Below, in pieces: positions 5,441 to 56,129 of a DNA stretch of 64,000 nt. The stretch is taken from contig DASZRT010000151.1 in the NCBI GenBank assembly GCA_035549075.1, positions 26,693-90,692 of the forward strand, read 5' to 3'. Below the pieces are notes generated by a model. That model ran no database searches. It was not told the origin of the DNA and saw only the letters and a list, made by a program, of their open reading frames with translations. A program made the position numbers and the translations under genes. Position 1 is the stretch's first letter. Each line of letters opens with the position of its first letter. This DNA comes from Polyangia bacterium. GTDB taxonomy: Bacteria > Myxococcota_A > Polyangia > Fen-1088.

Positions 5441-6337
5441 ATGCCTGAACCGCGAACCGATCGCGCGCGCGGCGCCCTGTTCGGCCTCGCCGTCGGCGAC
5501 GCGCTCGGGACGACGCTCGAGTTCGCGAGGCCGGACGTTCCGTCATTTCCGACGCGGCTCGAGGGTCCTCATCGAACCATCACGGGCGCCGGGCCGTTTC
5601 GGTTGACGGCCGGCGAGGTCACCGACGACACGCAGATGGCTTGCTGCCTCGCGGCCTCGCTCACCGAGCGCGACGCGTTCGATGCGAGCGACGTTCTCAG
5701 TCGGTACAAGCGGTGGAGCCTCGTTGCGTTCGACGTCGGCCTTCAAACGAGGGCGGCGCTCTCGTTCGCCGCCGACGGCGGGCGCGCCGTGTGGGAGCGG
5801 CGAACGGGCGAAAAGCCGGCCGGCAACGGCAGCTTGATGCGGACGGCGCCGATCGGCGTGCGCTTCGCCGAAGACGACGACGCCCGCGTCGCCACGTCGT
5901 GGGCCGATTCGTCGCTCACGCACTTCGACCCGCGCTGTCTCTTCGCGTGCGTCGCCTTCAACGGCGCCGTCGCGGCCGGCGTGCGGGGCGCATCGACGGT
6001 CGAGATGCTCGCCGCGGCCACGCACGATCTCGAAGCCGCGCGCGCACGGTACGTCAAAGCTCGCTCACACATTCGCGCCGAGCTCACGAGCGGAGCGCGC
6101 GCCATCGCCGACGATCTCCGCTTCGCCGAAGCGCCCGATCCTCATCTCGAAAGCGTCTCCAGCGAAGGCGGCCTCGACCGCGGCGGCGACGCCGACACCA
6201 ACGGCGCCATCACCGGCGCGCTGCTGGGCGCGCGCCACGGCGAGAAGGCGATCCCCGCCACATGGCGCGATCGCGTTCTAAACGCGCGCGGGCTGGAGCC
6301 TCGGTACCACCCGCGCGTGTTGCTCGAGATGATTTAG
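5441..6337 (+). CDS. ADP-ribosylglycohydrolase family protein (DraG/ARH-like)
   Basis: ALFGLAVGDALGTTLEF N-terminal motif and C-terminal GGDADTNGAITGALLGARHG motif typical of ADP-ribosyl hydrolases. Confidence 0.85.
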   Translation: MPEPRTDRARGALFGLAVGDALGTTLEFARPDVPSFPTRLEGPHRTITGAGPFRLTAGEVTDDTQMACCLAASLTERDAFDASDVLSRYKRWSLVAFDVGLQTRAALSFAADGGRAVWERRTGEKPAGNGSLMRTAPIGVRFAEDDDARVATSWADSSLTHFDPRCLFACVAFNGAVAAGVRGASTVEMLAAATHDLEAARARYVKARSHIRAELTSGARAIADDLRFAEAPDPHLESVSSEGGLDRGGDADTNGAITGALLGARHGEKAIPATWRDRVLNARGLEPRYHPRVLLEMI

Positions 6338-6537
6338 GTGCGCCCGTGCGGAGGCGGGGGTGCGCTGGGCTGCTCGTCGCCTTCGCACTCTTCGAGCTTT
6401 TGTAGGTCCTTCTTCGGAATGAGCGCCGCGAGCGTCGTCCCGTACCGGGTGACCTTGATCCGTTCGCCTTTCGCCGTGCGCTCGATGAGCGCCGCGAAGT
6501 CCTTTCGCGCTTTCGCCGCCTGAACTCTTTGAGCCAT
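6334..6537 (-). CDS. Phd/YefM-like type II antitoxin-fold protein (67 aa), orphan
   Basis: KDFAALIERTAKGERIKVTRYGTTLAALIP matches the Phd/YefM N-terminal fold. It overlaps the convergent ADP-ribosylglycohydrolase gene by 4 bp. No toxin gene is adjacent. Confidence 0.55.
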   Translation of the reverse strand: MAQRVQAAKARKDFAALIERTAKGERIKVTRYGTTLAALIPKKDLQKLEECEGDEQPSAPPPPHGRT

Positions 6538-6701
6538 GACGGAAAGCTGGGTCGCGCTTTCGACACGTCAATGTGCGCAACACGGGGCCTGTCGGTAACC
6601 GCAGAAATAACGCCACCCGCAGTTGACATGGGCGAGTGCCAAACACATCTTGTACAAGAACTCGGGACTGTGTCGGTCTCGACTTCGAGGGAGGCCTCCA
6701 C

Positions 6702-7088
6702 ATGACTTCTTCCGTGGGCACGATTCTCCTCGTCGAAGACGACTTCGTCCTCCGCGCCGCGCTCGCCGAGCTGTTCACCAGCGAGGGTTATTCGGTCGCC
6801 TGTGCCGCGAACGGGCTCGAAGCGTTCGCGCTGCTCAGCAACAAAGCGATGCCGAAGCCGTCGGTGATCGTCCTCGATCTCATGATGCCGTACATGGACG
6901 GGATCGAGTTCCGCGCGCTCCAGCGCTCGTTGCCGTCGGTGTCGGACGTGCCGGTCGTCGTCATCACGGCGAACGGCAGCGTCGCCGTCGAGGCCGAGCA
7001 GCTCGCCGTCGCGCGCACGATGTTCAAGCCGGTCAACAGCTGGCGGCTGCTCGACGCCGTCCGCGAGCTCGCGCCCGCGGCGGCATGA
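6702..7088 (+). CDS. Single-domain response regulator (CheY-like receiver)
   Basis: GGGAGG RBS 8 nt upstream of ATG 6702. ILLVEDD...VLDLMMPYMDG...VVVITANG receiver motifs. Confidence 0.85.
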   Translation: MTSSVGTILLVEDDFVLRAALAELFTSEGYSVACAANGLEAFALLSNKAMPKPSVIVLDLMMPYMDGIEFRALQRSLPSVSDVPVVVITANGSVAVEAEQLAVARTMFKPVNSWRLLDAVRELAPAAA

Positions 7089-7795
7089 TGGCGTCCGAGC
7101 GTGCACGCGCCGCCGCGCTCGTGCCCGTGGACGTCTCGCTGCTGAGCCACGTGCTGCTCACCCCGCTGTCGGGGATCGTCATGTGGTGCCAGATGCTCGA
7201 GCGCCAACCGCAGCTGCCGCCGACGGTCAAGCGCGGGCTGCACGCCATCGACCACGGCGCGCGCGCGCAGGTCGCGATCCTCGAGAACCTCGTCGAGATG
7301 AGCCGCCTCCACGCGGGCGATCGCGAGCTCCATCGCACGCGCGTCGACGTCGTCGCGGGCGCGCACGACGTCGTCGCTCAGGCGACGAGCGCCGCCGAGC
7401 CTCGAGGCGTGCTGCTCGTGTTCGCGGGGCCGGCGGCGCCGTGCTTCGTCGAAGGTGATCCGGCCCGGCTGCGCTGCGCGCTCCGCAACGTCGTCGACAA
7501 CGCCGTCGCGGCTTCGTCCGACGGGGGGCGCGTCGAGGTCACCGTCGAAGAGACCGTGAACGGCGTCGTCTTCAGCGTCGCCGACGCCGGCAGCGGCCTG
7601 ACGCCCGCGACGTGGGCACGGCTGCTCGTCCTCGGTGACCTGCGCGAGGCGCGCGCGGCGCGGCGACACGGCGGCCTCGGCCTCGGCTTGCCCATCACGC
7701 GCCACCTCGTCGACCTTCACGGCGGCACGCTCGTGATGAGACCAAACACGCCGCGCGGCTGCCAGGTCGTCATCACGCTGCCGCGCGCGCCCTGA
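7085..7795 (+). CDS. Sensor-less histidine kinase (HisKA + HATPase_c only, 236 aa)
   Basis: ATGA start/stop overlap with the response regulator. H-box SHVLLTPLSGI, N-box NVVDNAV, G-boxes DAGSGL / GLGLGL. No TM or sensor domain. Confidence 0.8.
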   Translation: MMASERARAAALVPVDVSLLSHVLLTPLSGIVMWCQMLERQPQLPPTVKRGLHAIDHGARAQVAILENLVEMSRLHAGDRELHRTRVDVVAGAHDVVAQATSAAEPRGVLLVFAGPAAPCFVEGDPARLRCALRNVVDNAVAASSDGGRVEVTVEETVNGVVFSVADAGSGLTPATWARLLVLGDLREARAARRHGGLGLGLPITRHLVDLHGGTLVMRPNTPRGCQVVITLPRAP

Positions 7796-7836: not shown

Positions 7837-8595
7837 GTGCACCCCGCGCTGCGAACCACCGCGCACCGCCCCTGGCCGCTGCCGCGCGGGCCGTGGCGCA
7901 TGCGGCAGAGCTGGCGCGATCTCTTGTTCGCGCACTGGCCCGTGCCGGCGTCGCGCCTTCAACCGCTCGTCCCGCCCGGGGTCGCGATTCAAGAGCACGA
8001 CGGCACGTCCTGGGTCGGCGTCGTTCCCTTCCGTATGGCGGGCGTGGCGGCGCGCCCGCTGCCCGACGTCCCTGGGCTGTCGGCGTTCCCCGAGCTCAAC
8101 CTGCGCCTCTACGTCGAGGTCGCGGGACGCGCGGGCGTCTGGTTCGTGAGCCTCGACGCCGCGAGCCGCGCCGCCGTCTGGGCCGCGCGCCGCTTCTTCC
8201 ACCTGCCCTACTTCCACGCCGACATGACCGTCCGAAACCAAGGCATCCGCGTCGAGTACCGGAGCGTGCGGCGAGACGTCGCAGGCCCCCGTGTTGCGTT
8301 CGTTGGCTCGTACGGACCGACCTCGACCGTGTTCGAAGCGCGTCGCGGATCGCTCGAGCACTTTCTCACCGAACGTTATTGCCTCTTCGCGCGCGCACCC
8401 GACGGAACGTTGTTGCGCGCCGACATTCACCACGCGCCGTGGCCGATGCAAACGGCGGAAGCCGAGATCGTCGAGAACACGATCGCCGCTGGTCAGGGGA
8501 TCTCCGTACCGCTGGGGCCTCCCGCGCTGCTGCACTTCAGCCGTCGGCTCGACGTCGTCAACTGGCTGCCGGTGCCAGCGGCTGCGGCGGATTGA
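7837..8595 (+). CDS. DUF2071 (YqjF-like) family protein
   Basis: The 252-aa protein has characteristic WRDLLFAHWPV and LRLYVE motifs; coding-like composition. Confidence 0.7.
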   Translation: MHPALRTTAHRPWPLPRGPWRMRQSWRDLLFAHWPVPASRLQPLVPPGVAIQEHDGTSWVGVVPFRMAGVAARPLPDVPGLSAFPELNLRLYVEVAGRAGVWFVSLDAASRAAVWAARRFFHLPYFHADMTVRNQGIRVEYRSVRRDVAGPRVAFVGSYGPTSTVFEARRGSLEHFLTERYCLFARAPDGTLLRADIHHAPWPMQTAEAEIVENTIAAGQGISVPLGPPALLHFSRRLDVVNWLPVPAAAAD

Positions 8596-8757: not shown

Positions 8758-9003
8758 ATGACCGTGACCAACGTGATTTTCGACCCAGCGCCTGTGCCTG
8801 CCGCCGCACCGACCGAGCCGCCCGAGCCGCCGATGCTCCTCCGGCCGCTCAGCCCACGTGAGAGCCAGATCGTTCAAATGCTCGATCAAGGCCGAACGCC
8901 GAAGGAAGTCGCCTTCGAGCTCGGCATCGCCAACGCGACGGTGCGGGTCCTGCTGTCGCGCGCGGTGAAGAAGGGCAGCCGCCCGCGCCGGGTTACCCGG
9001 TAA
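8758..9003 (+). CDS. Small LuxR/GerE-type HTH transcriptional regulator (81 aa)
   Basis: LSPRESQIVQMLDQGRTPKEVAFELGIANATVRVLLSRAVKK matches the LuxR C-terminal HTH. The 3' end overlaps the convergent cysK by 11 bp. Confidence 0.7.
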   Translation: MTVTNVIFDPAPVPAAAPTEPPEPPMLLRPLSPRESQIVQMLDQGRTPKEVAFELGIANATVRVLLSRAVKKGSRPRRVTR

Positions 9004-41891: not shown

Positions 41892-43876
41892 ATGGCCTCG
41901 ATCGCCGACACGAAGCGCGCGCTGGACGCGCGTCACGCGAGCCTCGTCATTATTTCTTCGCTCGCCGTTTCATGCGCGCCCGGGCGCGCCGTCGTCGGCC
42001 TCGAGCGCGGCAACGACGAAGGCGCGGGCGGCAGCGGCGGCGCGACCTTCGATTTGTCGCCGATGCTCGCCGATTGGCCGCGCCTCGCCATCGGCACCGA
42101 GAGCCGCTCGATCTCCAGCTTCGATCGCGCCGGCGGCAACGACGACGGCTTCTCGGGTCGTTACTCCGAGCTCTACACCGACGAGAAAGGCGAGCACGTC
42201 ATCGTCGACGTCGGCGGCCCAGGACGCCTCAACACGCTCTGGTTCACGAGCGCCGTGAGCGGCACGGCGCCGCTCGGCCTCGGCCGCCTGCGGTTCTACG
42301 TCGACGGCGCGACGACGCCCACCTTCGAAGCGGACGCCGATCGCCTGTTCGCGGGCCAGGTCGCCGGCTTCCCGCGCGCGCTCGTGTTCGACAACCGCCG
42401 CAGCACGGGCGGTTTCGTCTCATACGTGCCCGTCACGTTCCGCTTCGGCCTGCGCGTCACGACCGAGAACAAGCCGGCTTTCTACAACGCGCAGATCGAC
42501 TCGTTGCCGGCCGACGCCGTCGTCGAGAGCTGGTCACCCGACGCGGATCTCACGAACGCCCTCGCGTCCTTCGGCGCCGGCTCGACGACGAGCGGAGACG
42601 AACCGAGCGACGACGAGGTCACGCTCGACAACGAGCGCGACGGCCCCGGCCTCGTGACGCGTCTGACGTTCTTCCCTTCCGGTTCACCCTCGGCGGCCGA
42701 GCTGCGCGCCGCGCGCGTGCGCATCTTCTGGGAAAACGAAGCGCACCCCAGCGTCGATGGCCCCGTCGACGCGTTCTTCGGCAGCGGCCTCGGCGTCGCG
42801 CCCGTCGCCTCGGCGGCGTTCGAGATGTCGCCCGCCCGTTTCGTGAACCGCGTGCCCATGCCGTTCTGGCGCCACGCGCGCGTTCAACTCACGGGCGTCG
42901 CGGGACGCCTCTTCTTGCACGTCGTCGAAAATCCCTACGACGAGTCTCACACCGCGCATTTGCACGTCACGTGGCACGAAGAGCGGCCCACGACGTCGCC
43001 CGACGACTTCGAGTACGTGACCTTCACGGGCGCCGGCAAGCTCGTCGCCACCGTGCTCACCGTCGAGCCGCCCGATGCCGCGCGCGACAAGCAATGGTGG
43101 GAAGGCGACCTGCGCTCATCGGCCGACGGCCGTCGCACCCCCGGCATTCAAGGCACGGGTTACGAGGACGACCACTTCGGCGGCTGGAGCAACGAGTTCT
43201 TCTCGACACCGTTCTCGCTGCCGCTGTCGGGCGAGCCCGCGGCGCACATCCTCGATCGCAACGGCCAGTACAACGGCGACGTCACCATGTACCGCGTGTG
43301 GCCGGGCATCCCGTTCCTCGGCGAGCTTCGCCACAGCGTCGAGCACGGCGACCAGAACGGCCGCGCCGTGAACGAATCGGCCGCGACGTTCTTTTACGGC
43401 GAGCCGCGATCGTGGCTCGTCACGTCCGACACGCTGGACCTGTGCGACGCCGACGCGCGGACGGCGCATGGCTTCATGCCCTTCGGACAGACGCGGCTCG
43501 ACACGCTCACGAGCCGCTTCGAGGGCCGCGACCCGACGCCCATCACGCACTGCCACCTCGCGCAGTCGAACACAGTGACCTTCAAGCTCGCCGTGCCGGC
43601 CACCAACGAAGGTGTCTACCTGCGCCGCTGGTTCGATCAGGCGACGGGCCCGCAGGCCGCGGTCGTCTCGGTCGACGGCGAATTCGTCGAGGTGTGGTCG
43701 ATCGCCGAGACGAACGCCTCGGCCAATTGGGCCGAGCGCGATTTTTCCTGCCGAAAAGCTTCACGGCGGGCAAAACGACGATCGAAGTGAGCCTCTCGAC
43801 CGAAACCGACATGGGCCTCGTCGCCTGGGACGCCGCTCGCTACCAAGCCGTCGCCGTCGTGCCGCCCGCGCCGTAA
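41892..43876 (+). CDS. DUF2961 (GH172-like) family protein with an apparent frameshift in a T5 run near the 3' end (frame 0 up to ~43745, frame 2 thereafter); possible pseudogene or sequencing error
   Basis: Frame 0 (track ORF ending 43790) gives a coherent protein up to ...ASANWAERDF, then junk (SCRKASRRAKRRSK). Frame 2 continues with protein-like FLPKSFTAGKTTIEVSLSTETDMGLVAWDAARYQ to the stop at 43876. Adding one T to ttttt (43742-43746) would join the two frames. Confidence 0.7.
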
Positions 43877-55295: not shown

Positions 55296-56129
55296 GTGCC
55301 TCCCTCGCTGATAGCGCCCGAGCTCGCGCGCGCGATCCTCGCGAGCTCGGGGCCGATCGTTTTCCTCACGGGCGCCGGGGTCTCCGCCGAGAGCGGCGTC
55401 CCGACGTTCCGCGGGCCCGAGGGCTACTGGCGCGTCGGATCGCGCAACTATCAGGCGACGGACCTCGCGACGGCCGAGGCCTTCGCGCGCATGCCCGACG
55501 AGGTCTGGCGCTGGTACCTCTACCGTCGCGGCGTGTGCCGCGCCGCCGAGCCGAACGCCGCGCACCTCGCGCTCGTCGAGGCCGAGCGGCGCTTCGGCGA
55601 GCGCTTCCTGCTCGTCACGCAGAACGTCGACGGGTTGCACGCGCGCGCCGGCAACACGGCCGCGCGCACGTACCGCATCCACGGCGATCTCGATCTGTGC
55701 CGCTGCGCCGACGGCTGCGCGCCGGCCGTGCGGCCCATGCCCGCTGCGATCGCGGTGGCGTGGGCCAAGGATCGCGTGCTCGACGACGACGCACGCGCCG
55801 CGCTCCACTGCGACTGCGGCGCGTGGCTGCGCCCGCACGTGCTGTGGTTCGACGAGGCGTACGACGAGCCGCTCTTTCGTTACCTCTCGGCGCGGCGCGC
55901 AGCCGGTGCGGCGGCCGCGCTCGTCGTCATCGGCACGAGTGGCGCGACCAACTTGCCCGCGCAGATGTGCGCGATCGTCGCCGCGCGCGCGGCGCCGCTC
56001 ATCGTGGTCGATCCCGATCCAGCGGCCTACGGCGCCGTCGCGGGCCGAGGCACGCGCGGTGTCCAGATCGTCGGCGGCGCCTGCGCCACCGTCCCCCCGC
56101 TCGTCGACGCACTCCTCGCGGCCGCCTAA
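55296..56129 (+). CDS. cobB: Sir2-family NAD-dependent protein deacylase (CobB-like)
   Basis: GAGVSAESGVPTFRG, QNVDGLH, zinc-ribbon cysteines CRC..C / CDC, GTSGA. Confidence 0.85.
   Translation: MPPSLIAPELARAILASSGPIVFLTGAGVSAESGVPTFRGPEGYWRVGSRNYQATDLATAEAFARMPDEVWRWYLYRRGVCRAAEPNAAHLALVEAERRFGERFLLVTQNVDGLHARAGNTAARTYRIHGDLDLCRCADGCAPAVRPMPAAIAVAWAKDRVLDDDARAALHCDCGAWLRPHVLWFDEAYDEPLFRYLSARRAAGAAAALVVIGTSGATNLPAQMCAIVAARAAPLIVVDPDPAAYGAVAGRGTRGVQIVGGACATVPPLVDALLAAA

Follow-up and report, generated by a model that had tools for sequence, protein, structure and literature searches.

Introduction

Among described relatives of the gene reported here, YefM, the antitoxin of the YefM-YoeB systems of Escherichia coli and Staphylococcus aureus, offers a close comparison. 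The E. coli yefM-yoeB operator contains palindromes with a 5'-TGTACA-3' core (PMC1802561; PMC4803016), the long (L) repeat, TCATTGTACAATGA, overlapping the -10 box (PMC1802561). A crystal structure of S. aureus YoeB-YefM on DNA shows 5'-TTGTACA-3' being read by every YefM dimer through contacts of Arg10 with guanine, and the S. aureus YefM promoter contains TTGTACAA (PMC7544224); Arg10 and Arg31 of YefM are essential for DNA binding (PMC4803016). Orphan antitoxins have been widely reported, and either anti-addiction or regulatory roles proposed for them (PMC7354431). They number thousands in genome surveys and their roles are mostly guesswork. Here we analyse a toxin-less Phd/YefM-fold gene of 67 codons, at 6334..6537 on the minus strand of a 64-kb stretch of DNA from a Polyangia bacterium (contig DASZRT010000151.1; hereafter the window), which has a G+C content of 70% and matches the Polyangia metagenome-assembled genome GCA_964589105.1. 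The gene represents a chromosomal Phd/YefM family of Polyangia that is conserved and truncated, and in which a YefM-type candidate operator is kept and is placed at a two-component operon.

Results

The 67-residue reading frame is a genuine conserved gene rather than an antisense frame left open by chance. The GC of its codon positions (0.69/0.49/0.78) has the coding pattern and that of the mirror frame on the plus strand (0.51/0.69/0.82) the anti-frame pattern, bearing out the acceptable codon usage that an earlier note on this DNA had credited to it. The identical protein is called in three assemblies; an initial search gave 16 homologs at 54-73% identity and a profile search at least 149 in Polyangia-type metagenomes, and comparison with four orthologs gives a dN/dS of 0.08-0.20 at a dS of at least 1. 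The frame is conserved in relatives, the lack of which, along with a lack of expression, the earlier note had named as a sign that it was spurious. An exhaustive search of 50%-identity representatives retrieves 75 clusters at E<=1e-10 and 1550 at E<=1e-3, where the family grades into the general Phd family. A mobile origin was rejected, the only matches among plasmids being two distant ones on Streptomyces megaplasmids, and a search for RNA elements in and around the locus gave an Rfam match at chance level only.

The protein scores 31.0 bits against the NCBIfam model TIGR01552 phd_fam (cutoff 20.8) and 27.6 bits (E=2.5e-6) against Pfam PF02604, slightly under the gathering score of 29.8, and the N-terminal Phd/YefM motif claimed for it earlier, ERTAKGERIKVTRYGTTLAALIP, is present. 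Across 120 sequences from at least five syntenic clades the core R11, G24, R26, K28, R31, T35, D44 and L48 is invariant. From 16 sequences AlphaFold2 gave a model of too low a confidence (pLDDT 62.9); with the 120-sequence alignment it reached pLDDT 83.9, with the predicted topology beta-alpha-alpha-beta-beta-alpha over residues 3-54 and a tail of low confidence behind them; the structured N-domain comprises residues 1-54 and the basic, low-complexity tail residues 55-67. The top 50 Foldseek matches of this model in the PDB, among them VapB46, 2odk, P1 Phd, YefM and RelB1, are all Phd/YefM-fold antitoxin N-domains (probability ~1.0; rmsd 1.0-2.9 Å, except for two full-length alignments at ~9.3 Å). 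By sequence the nearest solved structures are RelB1 (9g12) and Phd (4zlx, 3hs2, 3hry). The likeness to YefM of E. coli and S. aureus extends from the N-terminal fold to the residues that contact DNA. In an hhalign profile alignment, for which the E. coli YefM sequence was validated against PDB 2a6q, R11 and R31 of the window protein fall on YefM R10 and R31, and both arginines of this basic patch are invariant in the 120 family members. The protein therefore retains the DNA-reading apparatus of YefM, although overall sequence identity between the two is only ~20%.

Neither the toxin nor the module that binds it has been retained, and this in the whole Polyangia-type family. Behind the 67-residue gene there is no toxin reading frame, the space being taken by the 3' end of an ADP-ribosylglycohydrolase (ARH) gene on the opposite strand. 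The precomputed Pfam gene tables, which span two parts of the window (~1-41 kb and ~56-64 kb), contain no toxin family, and tblastn, by which alone the intervening ~41-56 kb was covered, found no toxin-like match anywhere in the 64 kb with ParE and PIN probes taken from outgroup loci or with unvalidated YoeB and Doc probes. From genomes and metagenomes we gathered 57 loci with the protein itself or a homolog of it, three of which (L001-L003) are identical in sequence to the window, and to which L061-L063 were added later. In the ~50 Polyangia-type loci no toxin-family frame stands next to the phd-like gene on either side. The outgroup Phd genes, at 43-49% identity, do carry adjoining downstream toxins, and these positive controls (L010, L011, L056 and L057) show that the search was able to detect them; the toxins are of ParE/RelE type in L010, L011 and L057 (confirmed by Pfam in L011 only, by eye in L010 and L057), and a PIN-like frame, also judged by eye, lies directly downstream of the Phd gene in L056. 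The statement in the earlier note that no Doc/RelE/ParE/VapC-like toxin follows the small gene thus holds in the window and in the ~50 related loci, none of which has an adjacent, co-transcribed gene of the Doc, YoeB, RelE/ParE or VapC kind.

The C-terminus is equally distinct. After the conserved LExCE the family has a tail of 6-43 residues that is unalignable between members, rich in R, K, A, P and S (29% Arg+Lys, median net charge +4), and modelled without secondary structure at a pLDDT of ~60, so that no conserved C-terminal toxin-binding segment is found. The outgroup antitoxins have a long, conserved C-terminal toxin-binding region. The outgroup Phd-ParE/RelE pairs (L010, L011 and L057) share the AEARKDFA...ITR core with the window protein and have TGTACA in their own promoter, yet these antitoxins and P1 Phd of Phd-Doc are 73-106 residues long, their toxin-binding C-terminus is ordered or can fold, and a toxin gene follows them directly; the 67-residue family has neither such a C-terminus nor a toxin gene. 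From YefM, too, it differs in the absence both of yoeB, or any other toxin gene, and of a conserved toxin-binding C-terminus.

The recurrent conserved partner of the phd-like gene is a response regulator plus histidine kinase, not the ARH gene. In the window a receiver-only response regulator of 128 residues (6702..7088, plus strand; PF00072, E=3.8e-20) is divergent from the phd-like gene, its ATG at 6702 preceded by a GGGAGG Shine-Dalgarno sequence, and its stop overlaps by 1 nt a sensor-less histidine kinase gene of 235 residues (7088..7795, plus strand) with HisKA and HATPase_c domains in the Pfam gene table. Orthologs of the kinase follow the response regulator in L006, L012-L014, L016 and L063. 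The regulator stands beside the phd homolog in all loci of clade A and, where there is sufficient sequence, in those of clades A' and C, and it adjoins the gene, usually together with the kinase, in three arrangements: divergent in A and A', convergent in C and on the same strand upstream in L017. Clade A (the window, L006, L007, L012, L014-L016 and L063) has phd divergent from the receiver-only regulator, usually then the short sensor-less kinase; clade A' (L004, L005, L047, L049-L051 and L053) also has the divergent regulator, with an acyl-CoA-binding protein (ACBP) gene downstream of phd. In clade C (L008/L039 and L031) the regulator is convergent, 6 bp past the phd stop, and the single locus L017 has a response regulator-histidine kinase hybrid upstream of phd on the same strand. 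Two-component genes lie at most 3.5 kb away in clade D (L061/L062). Clade B, of ~23 non-redundant loci, is arranged differently: phd overlaps the stop of an upstream gene for a 227-residue membrane protein and faces typA, and the regulator is not nearby.

The candidate operator of the family is a perfect 12-bp palindrome, TCTTGTACAAGA, at 6648..6659 of the window, between the divergent phd-like and response regulator genes, and would accommodate one Phd-like dimer. Its core, TTGTACAA (6650-6657), emerged as invariant when the intergenic regions of clade A were aligned. It occurs once in the 64 kb, against 0.05 copies expected from shuffling. Each of 25 loci likewise has a single copy, in all cases next to phd or to the response regulator gene; where flanking DNA suffices, every non-redundant locus of four of five clades has it in that position. 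In clade A (7/7 non-redundant loci) its distance upstream of phd is 113-151 bp, a position 3-45 nt ahead of the ATG of the regulator, and in clade A' (7/7 loci) it abuts the phd ATG. In clade C it is again 43 nt upstream of the convergent regulator's ATG, with the spacing seen in the window, and not upstream of phd, and in L017 ATGTACAA stands ahead of the hybrid regulator-kinase gene. The core is identical to that of the E. coli YefM L repeat, TGTACA included, and like that repeat it is placed over a -10 region, which in the window is a putative one. It equally matches the S. aureus YefM site that Arg10 reads (PMC7544224). In the outgroup canonical Phd-toxin loci TGTACA is found ~23-32 bp upstream of phd, or as two boxes 18 bp apart. 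A second, paired GTAC box 12-18 bp away was searched for and none was found, there being one GTAC box per locus. The window thus has by sequence a TGTACA-core palindrome in a promoter region, as a single site in place of the two boxes 12 bp apart of YefM, and at the promoter of the neighbouring two-component operon in place of its own. A single box fits the binding of one dimer without toxin-mediated bridging.

A promoter and terminator scan and an inverted-repeat tool both returned nothing in the intergenic region, and for this reason the palindrome and the hexamers around it were verified by pattern search and direct reading. By eye, a putative promoter of the two-component operon occupies 6623..6651 on the plus strand (TTGACA at 6623-6628, a 17-nt spacer and CATCTT at 6646-6651), which would set the start site inside the palindrome. 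TTGAC[AGT] recurs 20-21 nt upstream of TTGTACAA in most clade A and A' loci, and 25 nt upstream in L014-L016. A putative promoter of the phd-like gene, again by eye, occupies 6544..6571 on the minus strand (TTGACG at 6571-6566, a 16-nt spacer and CAGCTT at 6549-6544), six nucleotides ahead of the ATG. The gene has no Shine-Dalgarno sequence, and its mRNA in the window would be leaderless or nearly so; L006, L007, L012 and L016 have the same layout, TTGACN-N16/17-xAxxTT-N6-9-ATG. In clade A' the layout of TTGAC and palindrome points at the phd gene and would likewise predict a leaderless mRNA. Both promoter assignments, for the two-component operon and for phd, are offered as proposals. Only 1-3 nt separate the palindrome from the start codon of the response regulator gene in L006 (1212-1229) and L063 (5877-5894), and from that of phd in clade A' (L004, 1303-1314); with the lack of a Shine-Dalgarno sequence this implies leaderless mRNAs, for the regulator in the former two loci and for phd in clade A'.

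Other genes recur around the family. A DUF2071 gene follows the kinase at 7837-8595 of the window and is a second recurrent neighbour, lying convergent and directly past the phd-like gene in L014 (4270-5136) and L015 (505-1392). At 8758-9003 the window has a stand-alone gene for an 81-residue LuxR/GerE-type helix-turn-helix (HTH) protein, which could be the output of the two-component system. In clade B (L018-L046, e.g. L026 669-1546) the upstream 227-residue multi-pass membrane protein is highly conserved and has no Pfam match, typA/bipA is the facing gene, and a promoter-like conserved motif, TGGCCAAC...GTGCGACATACTGGGG, precedes the membrane-protein gene. A shared operator in this clade was considered and rejected, this different motif being found there instead. 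In clade D a 70-residue protein of unknown kind is encoded convergent to phd, and the palindrome of that clade (L061 6261-7651) is flanked by an HTH_31 gene and a gene for an unknown protein of 211 residues.

The convergent neighbour in the window is the ARH-family gene, of 298 residues, at 5441..6337 on the plus strand. The 4-bp tail-to-tail overlap described in the earlier note is as stated, at 6334-6337 (TTAG), where the ARH stop TAG and the phd stop TAA on the other strand, with one flanking base each and nothing more, are shared. The protein belongs to PF03747 by profile (E=3.5e-55, matched in two stretches) and by its di-metal site motifs: GDALG, TDDT and GGDADTN are retained, and D20, T61-D62-D63-T64, D250, D252 and T253 are invariant columns of the alignment. 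The score against the DraG equivalog TIGR02662 is 126.1 bits, far under the cut-off of 337.05, and that against the Tri1 equivalog NF041672, a partial match, 125.9 bits with a cut-off of 490. Homologs are 340-350 residues long, and a 34-residue block kept in 7/7 of those aligned, ILTQAGFVRVAFRLAFWELLHAPSFEAALIDVVN, is missing from the window protein between D246 and R247 (~6176-6181), leaving an incomplete catalytic core and a split Pfam match. The deleted form is seen in three assemblies, and the enzyme may be inactive or altered.

That this hydrolase stands next to an antitoxin-fold gene had seemed notable in the earlier note, with ADP-ribosylating toxins in mind, and here the note is not borne out. 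The two genes adjoin in this genome only; beside the phd homolog in all the other ~50 loci the ARH gene is absent, and the downstream neighbour elsewhere is an ACBP, DUF2071 or membrane-protein gene, a sigma factor, typA or a response regulator. Neither of two ARH relatives examined has a phd neighbour. With the adjacency confined to this genome and the ARH relatives lacking phd, the link is unsupported, the pairing being unconserved when viewed from either gene, and the overlap is a coincidence without functional meaning. The other flanking gene encodes a 414-residue protein without a Pfam match, so that no ADP-ribosyltransferase (ART) toxin gene is adjacent to the hydrolase, and no ART family occurs among the Pfam-annotated window genes. 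PADLOC returned zero matches for the phd-like, ARH and 414-residue genes, and membership of the locus in a defence system was rejected. DraG/Tri1-type ADP-ribosylarginine hydrolases thus share with the window protein the PF03747 fold family and metal-site motifs, and differ in the equivalog scores, the intact core and the context, there being no nitrogenase, type VI secretion system (T6SS) or ART around it among the Pfam-annotated genes.

The nearest intact ARH homolog, at 64% identity, lies in a cluster of NUDIX/NrtR, 2OG-Fe(II) oxygenase, ARH and Macro genes (L064, 3596-6578, from the same metagenome sample as L063), which suggests ADP-ribose/NAD housekeeping rather than toxin reversal; the second relative has an unrelated gene context. 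Far from the phd-like gene, by 49 kb, a frame at 55296-56129 opens with a GAGVSAESGVPTFRG-type motif and is by eye sirtuin-like (NAD-dependent deacylase or ADP-ribosyltransferase family). At ~41900-43600 the window has only short frames with atypical codon-position G+C, as judged with a simple GC3-based picker, and the window's own assembly contig (L059) ends nearby.

Discussion

The explanation that we consider probable, on the sequence evidence, is that a domesticated, toxin-less Phd/YefM dimer binds the single palindrome and represses or tunes the operon of response regulator and histidine kinase. Toxin partner and toxin-binding C-terminus alike have gone, and the DNA-binding domain that is left is kept under purifying selection in Polyangia-type bacteria. 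We infer that the dimer binds the TTGTACAA-core palindrome, with its invariant Arg11 in the part of YefM Arg10, reading the guanines of GTAC. The palindrome of this genome would overlap the -10/+1 region of the divergent two-component promoter, if promoter and start site are placed correctly, so that the protein would act on that operon as a repressor or modulator. One dimer would occupy each site, without the toxin-mediated bridging of canonical systems, and for clade A' such a site would mean autoregulation of the classical kind. Of the orphan roles put forward in the earlier note the regulatory one is accordingly probable, while an anti-addiction role is unlikely, since the family lacks a conserved toxin-binding C-terminus.

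Several observations weigh against this explanation. The ~23 clade B loci show no response regulator in the DNA available and, with L036 the sole exception, no TGTACA, so that the link between operator and regulator does not extend to the whole family. The palindrome of clade D is 927 bp downstream of phd, between other genes, and the regulated target may differ there. In the window clade the palindrome is not at the putative promoter of phd itself, unlike in canonical autoregulation. Some of the adjacency to the regulator could be chance or vertical synteny, chance being conceivable because two-component genes are abundant in these genomes. The hexamers themselves are weak: the consensus scanner reports no promoter in the intergenic region, and is negative at its threshold because the -10 hexamers match at only 3/6 positions.

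The palindrome could, moreover, be bound by another factor, or be a promoter element only, the Phd-like protein acting instead through contact with a protein, such as the response regulator, or through general basic binding of DNA or RNA. The clade B members without a nearby palindrome speak for this, as does the position of the site over the putative -10/+1, where conservation could partly reflect promoter function, and a regulator without an output domain needs a partner. We nevertheless think it unlikely: YefM sites defined by experiment have the very 8-mer TTGTACAA, the arginines that read the bases do not vary, the canonical outgroup relatives have TGTACA in their own promoters, and a perfect dyad of 12-14 bp is nothing that a promoter requires. 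An orphan antitoxin acting in trans, on a Doc, YoeB, ParE or RelE-type toxin encoded elsewhere or on incoming mobile DNA, has still less to commend it. The protein is a Phd family member, orphan antitoxins have been proposed as anti-addiction modules (PMC7354431), and our view of the genome spans 64 kb; yet toxin binding by Phd/YefM uses the conserved C-terminal segment, replaced here by a variable, basic, low-complexity tail, the gene is in stable chromosomal synteny and essentially absent from plasmids, and neither the annotated window genes nor the tblastn probes revealed a toxin family, which makes such a role improbable. That the gene is a decaying, functionless remnant of a former toxin-antitoxin operon is very improbable indeed: its nearest canonical relatives are Phd-ParE/RelE pairs and both toxin and toxin-binding tail have gone, but a dN/dS of 0.08-0.20 at saturated dS, an invariant core in 120 sequences of at least five syntenic clades and a conserved layout of its own promoter are hardly those of a relic. 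ARH-type hydrolases reverse toxin ADP-ribosylation in other systems, e.g. Tri1, and this, with the 4-bp convergent overlap and the partial match to NF041672 (Tri1), could make the phd-like and ARH proteins a functional module tied to ADP-ribosylating toxins. We give this hardly any credence, given genes that are convergent and not co-transcribed, that adjoin in one genome, and whose two ARH relatives have no phd, with no ART among the annotated genes, a blank PADLOC result, a 34-residue core deletion, and Tri1 and DraG scores of ~126 bits against cut-offs of 490 and 337. An ARH-Phd module was therefore rejected. Taken as a whole, the first reading of the locus was right about a real, toxin-less Phd/YefM fold with a probable regulatory role, and it was the functional juxtaposition with ARH, unconserved, that did not survive.

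Regulation of the two-component operon by the Phd-like dimer can be carried one step further. The response regulator may, in a scenario that we regard as a long shot, have replaced the missing toxin as partner, binding the Phd-like dimer in a manner dependent on its phosphorylation state, possibly through the basic tail, and tuning occupancy of the TTGTACAA operator. The adjacency of the regulator in three arrangements and the operator at its promoter allow this. If it were so, the Phd-fold protein would be the missing DNA-binding output of an output-less two-component system, with co-repression rewired from toxin to phosphorylation.

The orphan type II antitoxins of genome surveys resemble the present gene in belonging to an antitoxin family without an adjacent toxin; they differ in being mostly recent remnants or on mobile elements, whereas this family is old, conserved and chromosomal, is divided into clades of its own, has a truncated architecture and shows a recognisable operator at a signalling operon. 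The comparative evidence points to a specific fate for such an antitoxin, in which toxin and tail have gone and the DNA-reading residues and TGTACA operator have been kept. The annotation 'type II toxin-antitoxin system antitoxin' is accordingly misleading for the 67-residue family, and the link of the phd-like gene to ADP-ribosylation should not be propagated. If the proposed explanation is true, the family shows an addiction-module repressor turning into an ordinary cellular transcription factor, and would provide a minimal, one-site, one-dimer model of Phd/YefM-DNA recognition without conditional cooperativity.

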